From assembly GCF_055900595.2 (NCBI RefSeq), contig NZ_CM148325.1: 64,000 nucleotides of DNA, one strand, 5' to 3'. The notes under the pieces were generated by a model. That model was not told where the DNA came from. It did no database searches and saw only the letters and a list, made by a program, of their open reading frames with translations. Made by a program: the position numbers and the translations under genes. Numbering within the stretch: the stretch's first letter is position 1; each line of letters starts with the position of its first letter. Shown here in pieces: positions 2,548-29,910 of this stretch.

Positions 2548-4035
2548 TTAAATCACCTCTTCGATAACCCACACGCTGACGCTGCCGCCGTTGCAAAAGA
2601 AGGTCGCTTCGCCGTTTTCGTCGGTTACTACGCTCTCTTGCCGGTTCCCCAGAAAATCACGCCAGGTTTTATTGCCGTAATTCTCTCCCAGATGAATGGT
2701 TTTTTCGCCATCATCCCCGTTCGACATGACCACCACGCAGCCGGGATATTCGTCGGTGCCACTGCGGCTAAAGGCAATGCAGTTCGGATGGTCGAAAAAT
2801 AACGTCTGTACACCGTGGGCGAAACGCTGACGGGCGAGAATTAACTCATCAAGCTGTTCGATTATTGGCATATCTATTGGATAGGTTTGCCCGTCACCAC
2901 CGACATCTTCGTAATGCGCACCGTAGAGGTCCGGATAGAACACCGAAGGAACGCCATTTTCCCGCAACAAAATTAGAGCATACGCCAGCGGTTTAAACCA
3001 CGGTTCGACCGGCGCTTCGAGGGCTTGCAACGGTTGGGTGTCGTGATTGGCAACGAGCGTCACGGCGTGGAAAGGATCGGCTTCCACTAATGTACCCGTG
3101 AAAATCTGCGTCATGTCGTAGTCGCGCCCCATGCGCGATGCTTCATGGAATTTCATCTGCAGCGGCGCATCAAACAGCATGGTTTTGCCTTCCACCTGAT
3201 CAATATACGTTTGCAGCTTATCAACTTCATGCGACCAGTATTCCGCCACAATAAACAGCGGCTTTGGCGCAACTTCTTGTACGTGTTCGATCCACTCTTT
3301 ATAAAACCATGCCGGTATATGTTTGACCGCATCAAGACGAAAACCGTCGCATTGCGTTTGTTCCATCACCCAGCGCGCCCAGTATTTAATCTCTTCCGTC
3401 ACGGCATGATTGCGGAAATCGATATTCTCGCCCATCAGATAATCGAAATTACCTAATTCATCATCAACCTGATCGTTCCAGCCTTCGCCGGTGTAGTCGT
3501 TAACAATTTTAAATATGCCATCTTCATCAGGGTTTTCGATATGGTCGATACCGCTAAAACATTTGAAATCCCAGATAAACTGCGAGTATTGCCCGGCACG
3601 AGCGGGGAAGGTGTAACGCGTCCAGCCTTCACACTCAATGATTTCTTCGTCAATTTGCGTACGGTCATCAGCATTTACACGCTGCACGCGAATAGCTTCT
3701 TTTTCATCCGCGCCCATTTTGTGGTTGACTACCACGTCCAACAGCACCGCAATGTCATTACGTTTCAGGGCGTCAATGGCGGCCAGCAGTTGTGCTTTAT
3801 CGCCATATTTAGTAGGGATGCTGCCTTTCTGATCAAACTCACCTAAATCAAATAAATCATAGGAGTCGTAGCCGACCGAATACCCGCCCGATGCGCCTTT
3901 ATAGGCGGGCGGCAACCAGACCATATTGATACCAATATCATTAAAACCGTCGGCGCGCTCGGCCAGTTCAGGCCAGAGCTTACCGCCTTCCGGGTAATAC
4001 CAGTGAAAACATTGTAACAGCGTGGGATTACGCAT
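2548..4035 (-). CDS. amyA: Cytoplasmic alpha-amylase AmyA
   Basis: Track ORF 495 aa; matches K-12 AmyA length and sequence as recalled. Confidence 0.95.
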
Positions 4036-4112
4036 TCTTCGACTCCATTCAAGGGGAACATTAGAAGCGTAGCCGTAATCGGATTATTCGCGAGCCATCG
4101 ACTCATTCAGAT

Positions 4113-4478
4113 TCAAAAGAGGTTATCCTGCGGAGCCAGCACAAAGCCGCCCTGATCGCCATAGGCACTTAACACCGATTTTTGCACCGATGACTGACCG
4201 ACCAGTTTCGCCAGTTCATCCATCCGAATCTGTAATAACTGCTTTACCTTGCTTTCGTTGTCGAGAATCAGGCGCAGCATCGGGCGGAGCTGCTCCTGCA
4301 TCGTGGTGGACGGGTCAATCTCTTCAGTCAAATGTGCAATCTCCTGCACCGCATTAACATACGCCATTTCGCTGGCGATGAGTTCGTCCCATTGTTCTTC
4401 CGTTGCCAGGCGTAACATGAGCTGGCTTTTTTCGACGAGTTGTTGCCAGGCGAAATACAAATGCGGTGCGTGGTTCAT
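4113..4478 (-). CDS. fliT: Flagellar export chaperone / anti-FlhDC factor FliT
   Basis: Track ORF 121 aa; matches K-12 FliT; position downstream of fliS. Confidence 0.93.
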
Positions 4479-4888
4479 CAGACTGGGTCCTGAATCAAAG
4501 AAGGGGAGAGTAACGACTCTTTCCAGGCATCGGCAATATTGCGCATTAATGCTTCCACTTCTTCGACTGCGGAGACATCGTTGCGTAAATTGGCTTGCAG
4601 CAAGCGCCTGACCATATAGCTATAAAGAGCAATCAAGTTTTGGGTTAATTCGTCTTTGCTCTCTTCATCAAGACTCACCCGCAGTCCGTTCTCAATGATG
4701 TTGATCGCTTTTGACAAAGAGACGCCTTTGCCTTGCTGATTGTTGTCCTGCATAAACAGGCGCGCTCTAACCAGTGCGCTCAGCACTCCATCAAATAGCA
4801 TGGTGACCAGCTGCTGCTGGCTGGCGCTCATTACGGCGCTTTCGACGCCAATTTGTGCATAGGCTTTTGAGCCGCTCGCGGTATACAT
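4478..4888 (-). CDS. fliS: Flagellin-specific chaperone FliS
   Basis: Track ORF 136 aa; matches K-12 FliS; stop overlaps fliT start by 1 nt. Confidence 0.95.
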
Positions 4889-4902
4889 GCTGACCTCCGT
4901 GA

Positions 4903-6315
4903 TCAGGAATTACTCATTGCAGTAAATTGTTGGCTGAGATAGGTACTGGTGTTATTCAGTTTGCTCATCATGGTATCTAATTGCGTAAACTGTGCAGTGT
5001 AACGCGCCACGGTGTCATCAATGCTGGCACTGACGGATAGATACTGTTTGGTCAGTTTTTTCAGTGTGGCGTTAATACTGTCCTGTGCGCTATCAATAAT
5101 GCCATCATCGGCAAGGTAACCTTTTACCTCGGTGGCAATTTTGGTGGTAATTCCTGTTTCTTTACCATCGCCTACCAGCAATTCACGTACGGATGCTGTA
5201 TTTTCATTCAGGACTTTTTTGAGTTTATCATCATCAATTTTCAGCTTACCCGTCGTGCCGTCCTGCTTAATCCCGATCTCGTTTAATGTTTTGAAGGCAC
5301 CGTCGCTGGCACCGTTTGCAAATTGTGCGCGGATGCCGCTTTGAATTGTACGTACAACGCTGTCTCCGAGAAGTGCACCATTATTTTTATCTTGTGCTTC
5401 AGCACCTGGGTCTACTTCTTTATATTTTGTCAGGGTGTTAAAGGTGTCAATGAGGGAGTTATATGAATCCACCCAGCCTTTAATTGCTTCGGTTGCTTTA
5501 TCGTTGCTTTTTGTCACCGTGACCCGGACGTCAGTGACTTTTTTGGTCAAATCGAGAGTCACTCCCTGAGGAGCATCGGTAATTTTGTTACTTGAACGTT
5601 CAATATCGATACCGTTAACGTTTAGCTGTGCATTTTGCGCGTTAACCAGTTCCTTCATATTCCCGGTGTTGGTCTTGCTGTCATAAGCCAGCAGATCATT
5701 TAATTTACTGTCACCCTCAACAGATATGGTCATTTTATTGGCCAGACCTTCACTGGCGGTCAATACCAATTGATAGTTACCATCTTTGACTTTAACGATA
5801 CTAGCGGAAATTCCACTATCGGCATCGTTAATGGCTTTGCTGATCTCATCCAATGACGTCTGATCTTTATTGAGCTTGATTTCCAGCGGCTCTTTACGAC
5901 CGTCTTGGGTAATTTTTATTGTGCGTGTATCTGATGACTCATCACCCAGTGCATCTTTTGTTGATGCAATGATTGTCGGGGAATCAGTTCGTAAAGATTG
6001 CGCCTGCGCCAGTTGGGTTACGCTGATGGTATAGATACCGGGAGCAGCACCTGCTTCGGTGGAAACTTTAAGGTCTTCATTGCTACTGGTAACGGTAGTG
6101 CTTTTGAACAGATCGGCTTTATTTAACGCAGTATTTGCAGTCTGGAATTTTTCTAATGCACTTTTTAATGTGCCATAGGCTGTCAGACGTGCGGTATTGT
6201 CACTCTGTTGCTGAGTAATTGGGTTTAAGCGTTTTTTTTCAGCGATGGTCAGGTTGTTTAGCAATGTATCCAGCGGCAGATTCGAACCAACGCCAAGAGA
6301 TGTAAATGAAGCCAT
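4903..6315 (-). CDS. fliD: Flagellar filament cap protein FliD (non-K-12 allele, 470 aa)
   Basis: Track ORF 4903..6393 (496 aa) trimmed to internal ATG at 6315 (MASFTSLGVGS...) with AGGA SD; the longer start would place the sigma28 promoter inside the CDS; conserved FliD termini with divergent centre. Confidence 0.9.
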   Translation of the reverse strand: MASFTSLGVGSNLPLDTLLNNLTIAEKKRLNPITQQQSDNTARLTAYGTLKSALEKFQTANTALNKADLFKSTTVTSSNEDLKVSTEAGAAPGIYTISVTQLAQAQSLRTDSPTIIASTKDALGDESSDTRTIKITQDGRKEPLEIKLNKDQTSLDEISKAINDADSGISASIVKVKDGNYQLVLTASEGLANKMTISVEGDSKLNDLLAYDSKTNTGNMKELVNAQNAQLNVNGIDIERSSNKITDAPQGVTLDLTKKVTDVRVTVTKSNDKATEAIKGWVDSYNSLIDTFNTLTKYKEVDPGAEAQDKNNGALLGDSVVRTIQSGIRAQFANGASDGAFKTLNEIGIKQDGTTGKLKIDDDKLKKVLNENTASVRELLVGDGKETGITTKIATEVKGYLADDGIIDSAQDSINATLKKLTKQYLSVSASIDDTVARYTAQFTQLDTMMSKLNNTSTYLSQQFTAMSNS

Positions 6316-6353
6316 ACCTAATTCCTTTTGATTGCAAACAGTAGATAAGCGGG

Positions 6354-6380
6354 TTATCGGCAATTTGTGCGCAAAGTTTA
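6354..6380 (-). promoter_or_regulatory. sigma28 (FliA) class-3 promoter of fliDST
   Basis: Minus strand reads TAAACTTT-N11-GCCGATAA (consensus TAAAGTTT-N11-GCCGATAA), about 40 nt upstream of the fliD ATG. Confidence 0.8.
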
Positions 6381-6473
6381 ATAGTTGATTCACGAAGATG
6401 ATGCGCAGAGTAGAGTTGTATATTACGGATATTTCAGCCGTTAAGAAAAAACAGGAGAGAAACTAAAATTTTC

Positions 6474-6500
6474 TAAAGTTCGAAATTCAGGTGCCGATAC
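6474..6500 (+). promoter_or_regulatory. sigma28 (FliA) class-3 promoter of fliC
   Basis: TAAAGTTC-N11-GCCGATAC, about 70 nt upstream of the fliC ATG. Confidence 0.8.
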
Positions 6501-6569
6501 AAGGGGTACGGTGAGAAACCGTGGGCAACAGCCCAATAACATCAAGTTGTAATTGATAAGGAAAAGATC

Positions 6570-8144
6570 ATGGCACAAGTCATTAATACAAACAGCCTGT
6601 CGCTGTTGACCCAGAATAACCTGAACAAATCTCAGTCTTCTCTGAGCTCCGCCATTGAACGTCTCTCTTCTGGCCTGCGTATTAACAGTGCTAAAGATGA
6701 CGCAGCAGGTCAGGCGATTGCTAACCGTTTTACAGCAAATATTAAAGGTCTGACTCAGGCTTCCCGTAACGCGAATGATGGTATTTCTGTTGCGCAGACC
6801 ACTGAAGGTGCGCTTTCTGAAATCAACAATAACTTACAGCGTATTCGTGAATTGTCAGTACAGGCCACTAATGGTACAAACTCTGACTCCGACCTGAATT
6901 CAATTCAGGATGAAATTACACAACGCCTTAGTGAAATTGATCGTGTTTCTAACCAGACACAATTTAATGGTGTAAAAGTTCTGGCTTCTGATCAGACTAT
7001 GAAAATTCAAGTAGGTGCGAACGATGGTGAAACCATTGAGATTGCCCTTGATAAAATTGATGCTAAAACCTTGGGGCTTGATAACTTTAGCGTAGCACCA
7101 GGAAAAGTTCCAATGTCCTCTGCGGTTGCACTTAAGAGCGAAGCCGCTCCTGACTTAACTAAGGTAAATGCAACTGATGGTAGTGTGGGAGGTGCTAAAG
7201 CATTCGGTAGCAATTATAAAAATGCTGATGTTGAAACTTATTTTGGTACCGGTAATGTACAAGATACAAAGGATACAACTGATGCGACCGGTACTGCAGG
7301 AACAAAAGTTTATCAAGTACAGGTGGAAGGGCAGACTTATTTTGTTGGTCAAGATAATAATACCAACACGAACGGTTTTACATTATTGAAACAAAACTCT
7401 ACAGGTTATGAAAAAGTTCAGGTGGGTGGTAAGGATGTTCAGTTAGCAAACTTTGGTGGTCGTATAACTGCATTTGTTGAAGATAATGGTTCTGCCACAT
7501 CAGTTGATTTAGCTGCGGGTAAAATGGGTAAAGCATTAGCTTATAATGATGCACCAATGTCTGTTTATTTTGGGGGAAAAAACCTAGATGTCCACCAAGT
7601 ACAAGATACCCAAGGGAATCCTGTACCTAATTCATTTGCTGCTAAAACATCAGACGGCACCTACATTGCAGTAAATGTAGATGCCGCTACAGGTAACACG
7701 TCTGTTATTACTGATCCTAATGGTAAGGCAGTTGAATGGGCAGTAAAAAATGATGGTTCTGCACAGGCAATTATGCGTGAAGATGATAAGGTTTATACAG
7801 CCAATATCACGAATAAGACGGCAACCAAAGGTGCTGAACTCAGTGCCTCAGATTTGAAAGCCTTAGCAACCACAAATCCATTATCCAAATTAGACGAAGC
7901 TTTGGCAAAAGTTGATAAGTTGCGCAGTTCTTTGGGTGCAGTACAAAACCGTTTCGACTCTGCCATCACCAACCTTGGCAACACCGTAAACAACCTGTCT
8001 TCTGCCCGTAGCCGTATAGAAGATGCTGACTACGCAACCGAAGTGTCTAACATGTCTCGTGCGCAGATCCTGCAACAAGCGGGTACCTCTGTTCTGGCAC
8101 AGGCTAACCAGACCACGCAGAACGTACTGTCTCTGCTGCGTTAA
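6570..8144 (+). CDS. fliC: Flagellin FliC (H-antigen; 524 aa, not the K-12 H48 allele)
   Basis: Track ORF; conserved N-terminus [12 protein letters not shown]... and C-terminus ...QNVLSLLR; AT-rich hypervariable centre. Confidence 0.95.
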
Positions 8145-8163
8145 TTTACACTTATCGCTCAAA

Positions 8164-8186
8164 CCCCGCCACCGGCGGGGTTTTTT
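8164..8186 (+). terminator. Rho-independent terminator of fliC
   Basis: CCCCGCC-ACC-GGCGGGG hairpin followed by TTTTTT. Confidence 0.85.
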
Positions 8187-8275
8187 CTGCATGGAATTTA
8201 CCGGTAACCCCCAAATAACCCCTCATTTCACCCACTAATCGTCCGATTAAAAACCCTGCAGAAACGGATAATCAT

Positions 8276-8283
8276 GCCGATAA
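8276..8283 (+). promoter_or_regulatory. sigma28 -10 element (GCCGATAA) of the autoregulated fliA promoter
   Basis: Perfect -10 GCCGATAA 26 nt upstream of the fliA GTG; -35 at correct spacing is a poor match (TGCAGAAA), so only the -10 is called. Confidence 0.55.
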
Positions 8284-8308
8284 CTCATATAACGCAGGGC
8301 TGTTTATC

Positions 8309-9028
8309 GTGAATTCACTCTATACCGCTGAAGGTGTAATGGATAAACACTCGCTGTGGCAGCGTTATGTCCCGCTGGTGCGTCACGAAGCATTGCGCCT
8401 GCAGGTTCGACTGCCCGCGAGCGTGGAACTTGACGATCTGCTACAGGCGGGCGGCATTGGGTTACTTAATGCCGTCGAACGCTATGACGCCCTACAAGGA
8501 ACGGCATTTACAACTTACGCAGTGCAGCGTATCCGTGGCGCTATGCTGGATGAACTTCGCAGCCGTGACTGGGTGCCGCGCAGCGTGCGACGCAACGCGC
8601 GTGAAGTGGCACAGGCAATAGGGCAACTGGAGCAGGAACTTGGCCGCAACGCCACGGAAACTGAGGTAGCGGAACGTTTAGGGATCGATATTGCCGATTA
8701 TCGCCAAATGTTGCTCGACACCAATAACAGCCAGCTCTTCTCCTACGATGAGTGGCGCGAAGAGCACGGCGATAGCATCGAACTGGTTACTGATGATCAT
8801 CAGCGAGAAAACCCGCTACAACAACTGCTGGACAGTAATCTGCGCCAGCGAGTGATGGAAGCTATCGAAACGTTGCCGGAGCGCGAAAAACTGGTATTAA
8901 CCCTCTATTACCAGGAAGAGCTGAATCTCAAAGAGATTGGCGCGGTGCTGGAGGTCGGGGAATCGCGGGTCAGTCAGTTACACAGCCAGGCCATTAAACG
9001 GTTACGCACTAAACTGGGTAAGTTATAA
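8309..9028 (+). CDS. fliA: Flagellar sigma factor sigma28 (FliA/RpoF)
   Basis: Track ORF 239 aa, GTG start; full-length match to K-12 FliA as recalled. Confidence 0.95.
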   Translation: MNSLYTAEGVMDKHSLWQRYVPLVRHEALRLQVRLPASVELDDLLQAGGIGLLNAVERYDALQGTAFTTYAVQRIRGAMLDELRSRDWVPRSVRRNAREVAQAIGQLEQELGRNATETEVAERLGIDIADYRQMLLDTNNSQLFSYDEWREEHGDSIELVTDDHQRENPLQQLLDSNLRQRVMEAIETLPEREKLVLTLYYQEELNLKEIGAVLEVGESRVSQLHSQAIKRLRTKLGKL

Positions 9029-9073
9029 CGTCAGTAAATGCCGCACTTTAATTTTGACTACCAGGAGTTCTTA

Positions 9074-9625
9074 ATGATGGTGCAGCACCTGAAAAGACGG
9101 CCATTAAGCCGCTATCTTAAAGACTTTAAACACAGCCAGACCCATTGCGCGCATTGCCGTAAATTACTCGATCGCATTACCTTAGTTCGCGACGGCAAAA
9201 TAGTGAATAAAATCGAGATTTCCCGCCTGGACACGCTGCTTGATGAAAATGGCTGGCAAGTGGAACAACAATCATGGGCGGCATTGTGCCGATTTTGCGG
9301 TGATTTACATTGCAAAACGCAGAGTGATTTTTTCGATATTATCGGCTTTAAGCAATTTCTTTTTGAGCAAACTGAAATGAGCCCAGGTACGGTGCGTGAA
9401 TATGTCGTTCGTCTGCGCCGTTTGGGGAATCATCTACACGAGCAAAATATTTCCCTCGATCAGCTGCAGGACGGTTTCCTTGATGAAATCCTCGCCCCGT
9501 GGCTGCCCACCACCAGCACCAACAATTACCGCATCGCATTACGGAAGTATCAACACTATCAGCGTCAAACGTGTACCGGACTTGTGCAGAAATCCTCCAG
9601 CCTGCCTGCTTCTGATATATATTAA
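9074..9625 (+). CDS. fliZ: Regulator FliZ
   Basis: Track ORF 9038..9625 trimmed to ATG at 9074 (MMVQHLKRRP...) preceded by CAGGAG SD; matches K-12 FliZ. Confidence 0.9.
   Translation: MMVQHLKRRPLSRYLKDFKHSQTHCAHCRKLLDRITLVRDGKIVNKIEISRLDTLLDENGWQVEQQSWAALCRFCGDLHCKTQSDFFDIIGFKQFLFEQTEMSPGTVREYVVRLRRLGNHLHEQNISLDQLQDGFLDEILAPWLPTTSTNNYRIALRKYQHYQRQTCTGLVQKSSSLPASDIY

Positions 9626-26557: not shown

Positions 26558-29910
<3,353 letters not shown>

Follow-up and report, generated by a model that had tools for sequence, protein, structure and literature searches.

The fliD gene of the E. coli sequence studied here (positions 4903 to 6315, minus strand, of a 64,000-nucleotide stretch of contig NZ_CM148325.1, NCBI RefSeq assembly GCF_055900595.2, hereafter the window) is an ordinary flagellar cap gene that belongs to a known system and not to a new kind. 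It is a member of a deep Citrobacter/Salmonella-type family of FliD ("type B") and not of the K-12 family. Taken as a whole, the best explanation, and one that we consider very likely, is that a type-B FliD is translated from the ATG at 6315 and that its cassette was probably imported from a Citrobacter-like donor. The allele is common, and public genomes already annotate it correctly.

We assign the 470-amino-acid product (plus stop codon) as the FliD/HAP2 cap because it has both of the expected Pfam domains, because of its position in the operon, and because it matches a solved cap over its full length. FliD_N (PF02465; 4.7e-22, 78.9 bits) and FliD_C (PF07195; 9e-67, 225.4 bits) both score far above the curated cut-offs, and the alignment of the solved Salmonella FliD (9gnz_R) with the window FliD covers residues 1-469 versus 1-466 (E = 5.7e-211). 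The gene order is amyA-fliT-fliS-fliD / fliC-fliA-fliZ: fliD heads the fliD-fliS-fliT operon, and fliC is transcribed divergently. The protein is predicted to cap the growing flagellar filament and to assist in the insertion of flagellin.

The window FliD is identical to K-12 FliD at 235 of 472 positions (50%). The initial annotation called the allele divergent from K-12, which is correct, if K-12-centred and understated. It also located the difference in the centre of the protein; the head is indeed only 42% identical, but the termini have diverged as well (67% identity at the N-terminus and 62% at the C-terminus), and the DNA of fliD can be aligned to K-12 over a 126-bp patch only. Identity to type A proteins (K-12, O157:H7, and E. 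albertii) is 49-50%, while identity to Citrobacter and Salmonella FliD is 83-93%. The best match, at 93%, is from L008 (a Citrobacter-like assembly), followed by C. tructae (87%) and by Salmonella (86% for P0012 and 76% for an LT2-like form). In a neighbor-joining tree, the longest branch splits two families of FliD (100% bootstrap), and the window allele is nested within a clade of the Citrobacter freundii complex and Salmonella (100% bootstrap).

Across 5426 complete E. coli genomes, with K-12 fliD as the query, fliD falls into three discrete classes. By counts that were taken from BLAST summary bands, about 3189 genomes have a K-12/O157:H7-like fliD, about 1320 have an O104:H4-like fliD, and 862 (about 16%) have the window allele at an identity of at least 99%. 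We will refer to this last group, which includes O6:H16, O103:H2, O111:H8, and O111:H11 strains, as class III. None of the 5426 genomes has a fliD of intermediate identity (between 80% and 95%). We found no description of fliD classes for E. coli in the literature that we searched, and Hu & Reeves (2020) do not mention fliD.

The window differs from K-12 over a single block of about 3.3 kb (roughly 4865 to 8164), which runs from around codon 9 of fliS to the fliC terminator. In a sliding comparison with K-12, identity ranges over 13-87% within the block and is 97-100% in the flanking sequence. The noncoding region between fliD and fliC differs from K-12 as well, and FliA is 100% identical. At the proximal edge, FliS (136 amino acids; 4478 to 4888, minus strand) is a mosaic. 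Its first eight codons are of the Citrobacter/Salmonella type (MYTASGSK, as compared to MYTASGTK in Citrobacter and MYAAKGTQ in K-12) and the remainder is of the E. coli type, identical to K-12 from AYAQIGVES on. Overall, FliS is 96% identical to that of K-12, with all but one of the differences in the first eight codons, and 62-64% identical to that of Citrobacter or Salmonella. Because those eight codons are of the Citrobacter type, the crossover lies within fliS. The chaperone for FliD, FliT (121 amino acids; 4113 to 4478, minus strand), is also of the E. coli type (99% identical to K-12 FliT and 33-34% identical to Citrobacter or Salmonella FliT). Instead of a cognate type-B fliDST operon, we see a type-B FliD with E. 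coli-type FliS and FliT, and the operon is thus chimeric. As for adaptation to the E. coli FliT, there is no site at which the window FliD matches type A against all of the other type-B sequences.

At the distal edge, fliC (6570 to 8144, plus strand) encodes an H16-type flagellin of 524 amino acids with Flagellin_N and Flagellin_C domains, and it is 99.9% identical to fliC from O6:H16, O25:H16, and O157:H16 strains. The block ends at the fliC terminator hairpin (8165 to 8186, plus strand; CCCGCCACCGGCGGGGTTTTTT), which is common to K-12. Between the fliC stop codon and this hairpin, K-12 carries about 155 extra nucleotides (REP sequences and the body of the FliX sRNA) that are absent from the window. 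An Rfam scan of positions 4000-8500 gave only two sub-threshold chance matches, both at the fliC terminator.

We propose that an ancestor of the class III lineages probably acquired a segment comprising fliD, the intergenic region, and fliC by homologous recombination from a donor that would have been Citrobacter-like. The first crossover would lie in the first ten or so codons of fliS, and the second at the fliC terminator. The cassette would later have spread among E. coli by way of the conserved sequence on either side, and within it fliC may have undergone further exchanges of its antigenic centre (H2, H8, H11, H16). The type-B cap would work with E. coli-type FliS and FliT, although for FliT this compatibility is presumed. 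We infer both the direction and the age of the transfer from sequence comparisons. A recent transfer from Citrobacter is rejected because the cassette DNA (about 78-86% identical to Citrobacter) is no more similar than the flanking housekeeping genes amyA and fliA are (about 76-88%).

This equality of cassette and flanks would also be expected if class III fliD were an ancient allele, kept in E. coli since before its divergence from Citrobacter and Salmonella, with the K-12-type classes being the newcomers (i.e., a trans-species polymorphism maintained by balancing or frequency-dependent selection). Two other observations would fit: E. fergusonii has a complete type-B fliDST operon, and in the tree the K-12-type FliD clusters with Kluyvera and the O104:H4-type FliD with Pseudocitrobacter. 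Nevertheless, we consider an ancient allele to be unlikely. Class III lies inside the Citrobacter/Salmonella clade, at 86-93% identity, as compared to 72% for E. fergusonii; FliD from E. albertii is of the K-12 type, at 94-95% identity; and the junction to E. coli-type fliS and fliT is sharp, with Citrobacter-like sequence on the donor side. Import from a Citrobacter-like donor remains our preferred explanation.

The block that differs from K-12 and the unit that is linked across genomes are not quite the same. The initial annotation proposed that the whole fliC-fliD surface module had been exchanged, and the block that differs from K-12 is indeed contiguous between well-conserved flanks. Among the class III genomes, though, the unit that travels together is fliD, the intergenic region, and the ends of fliC (851 of 862 genomes), and not the H16 centre of fliC: an H16 fliC is present in 137 genomes only, all of which have the full cassette, including class III fliD. 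It is very unlikely that fliD and fliC always move as an indivisible module, with a separate fliD for every H type. Such a module would account for the difference from K-12 across the entire block and for the window-type fliD in all 137 of the H16 genomes, but the same fliD is found (at 99% identity or above) in H2, H8, H11, and H16 strains alike, and the H16 and H2 flagellins have near-identical ends with different centres. The strict reading, of one fliD per H type, is ruled out by the genome counts (862 for fliD versus 137 for H16). Finally, rapid diversifying selection on an exposed protein might have produced the allele locally from a fliD of the K-12 kind. This idea could explain why divergence peaks in the exposed head domains, but it is refuted by the phylogeny and we give it almost no credence: there are no 80-95% intermediates, the buried coiled-coil termini and the noncoding intergenic region differ too, the closest alleles are from other genera, and at no position does the allele agree with type A where the other type-B sequences do not.

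The promoters of the operon bear on where translation begins. We searched the 64-kb window for the sigma-28 consensus TAAAGTTT-N11-GCCGATAA, with up to 3 mismatches, and found 5 sites where 0.55 would be expected by chance; not one of 100 shuffles gave as many. One is the class 3 (sigma-28/FliA) promoter of fliDST (6354 to 6380, minus strand), which has TAAACTTT at 6380-6373, an 11-nucleotide spacer, and GCCGATAA at 6361-6354, with one mismatch to the consensus. Both of its hexamer blocks are invariant in nine aligned loci, and it aligns column for column with the motif TAAACTTTGCGCAATTCAGACCGATAAC from FliA ChIP-seq at fliDST in K-12 (PMC4183435). Of the other four sites, one lies within otsA and the rest are at fliC, motA, and tar; all four are FliA ChIP-seq sites in K-12 (PMC4183435). 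The fliC promoter (TAAAGTTCGAAATTCAGGTGCCGATAC, two mismatches; 6474 to 6500, plus strand) diverges from that of fliD. The geometry of the fliD motif suggests a 5' untranslated region of about 30 nucleotides, with the transcription start positions being those predicted from the motif.

A second promoter, which would depend on FlhDC (class 2), probably lies just upstream of the class 3 promoter. At 6399 to 6444 (minus strand) there is a putative FlhD4C2 box with two conserved blocks, ...GCyGAAATA... and ...TATTCCGCGCATTAT..., which we take to be similar to the inverted half-sites of an FlhDC box. In K-12, fliDST is under dual control by FliA (class 3) and by an FlhDC-dependent class 2 promoter, and FlhDC occupancy at fliDST was seen by ChIP-qPCR (PMC4183435). 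Because we found no published transcription start coordinates for the fliD class 2 promoter in the literature searched, we infer its position. The initial annotation had correctly placed the sigma-28 promoter, but it also argued that a transcription start upstream of 6393 would overturn the choice of start codon. This does not follow: because fliDST also has an FlhDC class 2 promoter, transcripts that begin further upstream than the sigma-28 start would not, on their own, count against the ATG.

The longest open reading frame at fliD (4903 to 6393, minus strand) has 496 codons and a GTG start, and its translation is MNQLLNFAHKLPITRLSTVCNQKELG-MASFTSLGVGS..., where the first 26 codons (6316 to 6393, minus strand) precede the conserved N-terminus of FliD. 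As the initial annotation had argued, this frame is over-extended. Translation is best read as beginning at the ATG at 6315-6313, which gives 496 - 26 = 470 amino acids (K-12 FliD has 468), and the upstream codons appear to be noncoding, comprising the 5' untranslated region and the promoter. A Shine-Dalgarno sequence, AAGGAA (6322 to 6327, minus strand), lies at -12 to -7 from this ATG, and both it and the ATG are invariant in all nine of the aligned loci. The 58 nucleotides around them are unstructured (z = +1.59), and folding gave no sign of structure in the 5' untranslated region. Within the conserved N-terminus, MAS(F/I)(T/S)SLGVGS, residue 1 aligns with residue 1 of the solved Salmonella FliD and of K-12 FliD. 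For O103:H2 strain 12009, which has an identical allele, RefSeq/PGAP gives a protein of 470 amino acids that starts at the base equivalent to 6315.

Could the 496-amino-acid frame instead be a real FliD with an allele-specific N-terminal extension? The upstream frame is open for 50 codons, and the GTG is used as the start in one GenBank deposit (OSL63670.1). That deposit is the only instance of the longer form, as compared to at least 1000 contigs with the exact 470-amino-acid protein. Also, by inspection of the sequence, no Shine-Dalgarno sequence precedes the GTG at 6393; the GTG is missing from the Citrobacter, Salmonella, and K-12 homologues; and in E. fergusonii and O104:H4 the frame is interrupted by in-frame stop codons at -2 and -4. 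The extension contains the sigma-28 promoter, and as the putative FlhDC box is at the GTG or slightly upstream of it, an FlhDC-activated transcript would be expected to start downstream of the GTG. In the native cap, the N-terminal loop and the D0 domain of FliD contact flagellin (PMC12221982), which argues against an added N-terminus. An extended protein thus seems extremely improbable, and we favor the ATG at 6315. The lesson for annotation is a routine one: calling the longest frame adds 26 spurious codons to fliD, an error that standard pipelines already avoid.

The closest well-studied relative is FliD (HAP2) of Salmonella enterica, whose native pentameric cap has been solved (PDB 9gnz and related; PMC12221982). 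It shares with the window FliD the full-length alignment, the domain layout, the operon position, the sigma-28 promoter, and a nearly identical 5' untranslated region. It differs in its host and in its partners, as the window has E. coli-type FliS and FliT (this FliT being 33% identical to Salmonella's). FliD of E. coli K-12 (b1924, 468 amino acids; crystal structure 5h5v) has the same locus, neighbours, promoter architecture, and, presumably, function, but it differs along the whole protein, belongs to a different deep family, and comes with a FliX body downstream of fliC. [quoted passage not shown]

Within Salmonella, the fliB-fliC-fliD region has two lineages: the trees for fliC and fliD are congruent with each other but not with the core genome, to which fliA and fliS do conform (PMC5744181). 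The boundary pattern in the window is the same, with fliA and fliS resembling those of K-12. Unlike Salmonella, E. coli has three classes of fliD, and the nearest relatives of each class are in a different genus. In Pseudomonas aeruginosa, the A-type and B-type FliD are reportedly (Arora et al., in 2000) co-inherited with a-type and b-type flagellin. Like E. coli, then, P. aeruginosa has discrete cap classes within the species that are tied to flagellin classes, but there FliD is linked to the whole flagellin type, whereas in E. coli the association is with the conserved ends of fliC and not with the antigenic centre.

Although the window fliD shows no new mechanism, the "E. coli FliD" of the structural and genetic literature is of the K-12 type, while about 16% of complete genomes carry a Salmonella/Citrobacter-like cap. 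This touches on the transfer of structural results across species (hexamer versus pentamer crystal forms), on the design of flagellar antigens and diagnostics, and on how recombination in the fliC region is read in H-typing. About one-sixth of sequenced E. coli, including major serotypes of STEC and ETEC (O26/O111:H11, O103:H2, O111:H8, and O6:H16), would be natural chimeras, with a Citrobacter/Salmonella-type cap, an E. coli FliT that is 34% identical to the cognate one, and a fliC 3' untranslated region without the FliX body. FliT is not only the chaperone for FliD but also an anti-FlhDC factor. It is conceivable, if rather doubtful, that the three fliD classes are regulatory as well as antigenic variants, in which the feedback between cap export and FlhDC is set differently. 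That would be so if FliT had an altered affinity for this FliD, or if the loss of FliX mattered; the coupling of cap export to FlhDC activity and flagellar number would then be shifted in these lineages.

The filament cap gene fliD lies on the minus strand, flanked by fliS (4478-4888, minus strand) and fliC (6570-8144, plus strand); fliT (4113-4478) and amyA (2548-4035) are also on the minus strand, and fliA (8309-9028, plus strand) has fliZ as the next named gene of the flagellar region. A mechanical ORF list gives fliD 496 amino acids from a GTG (4903..6393), with a product that begins MNQLLNFAHKLPITRLSTVCNQKELG and then continues as MASFTSLGVGS. The initial annotation had held that this ORF begins upstream of the MASFTSLGVGS terminus, and the ORF list and our reading of the sequence bear out every detail. 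It had placed the true start at ATG 6315, which gives 470 amino acids (4903-6315), and six lines of evidence agree. First, an identical allele in O103:H2 strain 12009 is annotated (RefSeq/PGAP) as a 470-aa FliD (WP_000146098.1), with a first base that matches window position 6315. Second, the exact 470-aa sequence occurs on at least 1000 contigs in a public collection; the 496-aa form occurs in one deposit (OSL63670.1). Third, residue 1 of the 470-aa protein is where the alignments with K-12 FliD and with the solved Salmonella FliD start, and Pfam FliD_N starts at residue 11. Fourth, the ATG (6315-6313), its AAGGAA Shine-Dalgarno sequence (−12 to −7), and both elements of the sigma-28 promoter do not vary across nine aligned loci (Salmonella, E. 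fergusonii, two Citrobacter, and the three E. coli classes, with the class present here and the K-12 class represented twice). Fifth, the GTG at −26 is found only in the present E. coli allele among the compared loci, in-frame stops precede the ATG at −2 in E. fergusonii and at −4 in O104:H4, and a comparison of the upstream frame found no upstream start codon in K-12 fliD. Finally, the sequence before GTG 6393 holds no Shine-Dalgarno, and folding of the 58-nt segment that surrounds the ATG is weaker than that of shuffled sequences (z = +1.59), in keeping with an initiation region. Also, in the native Salmonella cap, which is a pentamer, the N-terminal loop and D0 helices are in contact with flagellin (PMC12221982), which makes an extension of 26 residues at the N-terminus improbable.

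The 38-nt 5'UTR of fliD (6316-6353, CCGCTTATCTACTGTTTGCAATCAAAAGGAATTAGG) is unstructured. It hardly varies among the present class, Citrobacter, Salmonella, and E. fergusonii, even though their coding DNA shares only 60-90% identity, and it could act as a conserved signal for translation or regulation. A second over-extension of the longest-ORF kind is FliZ, which is 195 aa in the ORF list (9038-9625, plus strand) and 183 aa in RefSeq for K-12 and O103:H2; the 183 aa are the part that aligns in the window, with a start at 9074.

The sigma-28 promoter of fliD (TAAACTTT-N11-GCCGATAA, 6380-6354) is upstream of ATG 6315 and inside the 26-codon extension, as the initial annotation had it; both sequence reading and a pattern search find it there. 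With up to three mismatches allowed, the pattern has five sites in the 64-kb window (0.55 expected by chance): fliD, fliC, inside otsA, motA, and tar, all of which are FliA ChIP-seq sites in K-12 (PMC4183435). The motif inside otsA (TGAAATTGCACCAGATCGAGCCGATAA, 28755-28781, minus strand) exactly matches an intragenic FliA site reported in K-12. Two regulators control fliDST in K-12: its promoter is occupied by FlhDC, and its expression is roughly halved without fliA and abolished without flhDC (PMC4183435). The sigma-28 promoter is thus not the sole one, nor the main one under those conditions, and a transcription start upstream of 6393 would be no clean argument against ATG 6315. The nine-locus alignment contains two conserved blocks at about 6444-6399 with a resemblance to the FlhDC half-site consensus, a putative FlhDC box. 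As FlhDC boxes lie upstream of the −35 region and overlap it, the class 2 start of fliD would be expected downstream of about 6380, which is below GTG 6393 too. We found no mapped coordinates for this start in the literature searched. In two complete genomes of the present class (NZ_CP068155.1 and NZ_CP182145.1), IS1-family elements are inserted between fliD and fliC, in the equivalent of about 6316-6569; the insertions could disconnect the divergent promoters from each other or shut them off.

FliD was described initially as a divergent allele with a centre unlike that of K-12. It is indeed only 50% identical to K-12 FliD, and just a 126-bp patch of the gene can be aligned as DNA. The head domains (residues 71-268) are the most different part (42% identity, with 49% for residues 269-430), but a third of the residues differ in the coiled-coil ends too (67% for residues 1-70 and 62% for 431-470), unlike the ends of fliC, which retain 73-86%. 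Also, "divergent" is a K-12-centred label, as the allele encodes a Citrobacter/Salmonella-type (type B) cap. It is 93% identical to FliD of a Citrobacter-like assembly (L008), 87% to C. tructae, 86% to one S. enterica allele (P0012), 76% to an LT2-like Salmonella allele, and 72% to E. fergusonii. Among solved structures, it matches Salmonella FliD at E = 5.7e-211 and a K-12 FliD crystal form at 2e-90. The nearest relatives of K-12 FliD (type A) are the proteins of E. albertii (94-95%), Kluyvera (82-87%), and Pseudocitrobacter (84%). A bootstrapped neighbor-joining tree separates two deep families by a long branch (100% support). The window allele falls within the Citrobacter freundii-complex/Salmonella clade (100%), where Citrobacter and Salmonella alleles are interleaved; E. 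albertii and Kluyvera cluster with K-12 and O157:H7, and Pseudocitrobacter groups with O104:H4 (98%). Two unusual proteins turned up: a 491-aa E. coli variant of the present class (P0001) with an in-frame tandem duplication of 21 residues in the head region (GDESSDTRTIKITQDGRKEPL twice), and a 613-aa K-12-type FliD fused in frame to FliS (P0121, Logan assembly; Pfam FliD_C + FliS), which is probably a read-through or an assembly/frameshift artefact.

E. coli fliD falls into three discrete classes, with fewer than about 60 genomes left over (counts taken from summary bands). Of 5426 complete E. coli genomes, 862 carry the window's fliD and intergenic sequence at an identity of at least 99%, and none has a match between 80% and 95%. 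A search with K-12 fliD instead finds 3189 genomes at 95% or above (O157:H7 among them), about 1320 that match over the full length at ~73% (including O104:H4), and about 790, which are the present class, that match only in the 126-bp patch. Named strains of this class include O6:H16, O25:H16, O157:H16, O103:H2, O8:H8, O111:H8, and O111:H11.

How did E. coli acquire this allele? Import from the Citrobacter/Salmonella clade is the better reading, because the allele is nested in that clade and distant from the type-B allele of E. fergusonii, because E. albertii has the K-12 type, and because the donor side of the fliS junction is Citrobacter-like. The cassette's DNA is about 78-86% identical to Citrobacter, which is no higher than amyA or fliA, so the transfer was not recent. 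The same figure would fit an old polymorphism that was long retained, which we consider unlikely given the nesting and the junction. That a K-12-like allele diversified in place is ruled out by the lack of 80-95% matches in the 5426 genomes, by the absence of any site that the allele shares with type A against the other type-B sequences, and by the tree. What was exchanged? Identity to K-12 drops from 97-100% in the flanks to 13-87% in a single contiguous block, from about 4865, inside fliS, to about 8164, just before the fliC terminator hairpin (8165-8186) that is common to K-12. FliS begins with MYTASGSK (MYTASGTK in Citrobacter and Salmonella, MYAAKGTQ in K-12) and is E. coli sequence from AYAQIGVES on, so FliS is a mosaic with a crossover in codons ~9-13. 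The recombination junction is thus within an export-chaperone gene, with codons 1-8 (4865-4888) of Citrobacter/Salmonella type and the rest of E. coli type.

The initial annotation had proposed exchange of the whole fliC-fliD module. Relative to K-12 this holds, but H type is not defined by that module. A match of at least 90% to the intergenic region together with the first 490 bp of fliC occurs in 851 genomes, which are practically the ones that carry this fliD, and the full cassette with its H16 centre is in only 137. H16 and H2 FliC have nearly identical ends and unrelated centres. fliD therefore stays linked to the divergent promoters and to the framework of fliC, inside which the antigenic centre is exchanged. 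The window FliC is 97-98% identical to that of C. tructae at its ends and 78% overall.

E. fergusonii (CP058057.1, L007, 6001-8204) has a complete type-B fliD-fliS-fliT operon. Its FliS is 84-87% identical to Citrobacter/Salmonella and 62-64% to E. coli; its FliT is 70-73% and 32% identical, respectively; and its amyA is nonetheless 97% identical to E. coli. The type difference within Escherichia is one of the entire fliDST operon, not of fliD alone.

By homology, FliD forms the structure that caps the filament and directs flagellin into its tip. The window operon is chimeric, with a type-B FliD alongside an E. coli-type FliT (identity of 99% with K-12, and of 33-34% with Citrobacter and Salmonella), so the cap would have to rely on that FliT. 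[quoted passage not shown] Together these make it plausible that type-B FliD is compatible with the E. coli-type FliT.

The fliC 3'UTR also differs. In the window (8145-8186; compare 2913-3107 in locus L002) it is only ~20 nt plus the terminator. In K-12 and O157:H7 it contains a REP-containing insert of ~155 nt, which is most of the FliX sRNA (K-12 ncRNA b4827; FliX and FliX-S are described in PMC10578931). The insert is missing from the cassettes of O104:H4, O103:H2, and the window, none of which can therefore produce FliX in the form known from K-12.

The nearest published parallel is in Salmonella, where the trees of fliB, fliC, and fliD are concordant and fliA and fliS track the core genome (PMC5744181). 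The literature we searched held no description of three fliD classes in E. coli, which is no proof of absence. The initial finding is correct and ordinary: fliD, its start, its promoters, and the exact allele are already in public annotation. What is added is the three fliD classes, the chimeric fliDST operon, and the loss of the body of FliX, which are modestly interesting and testable.
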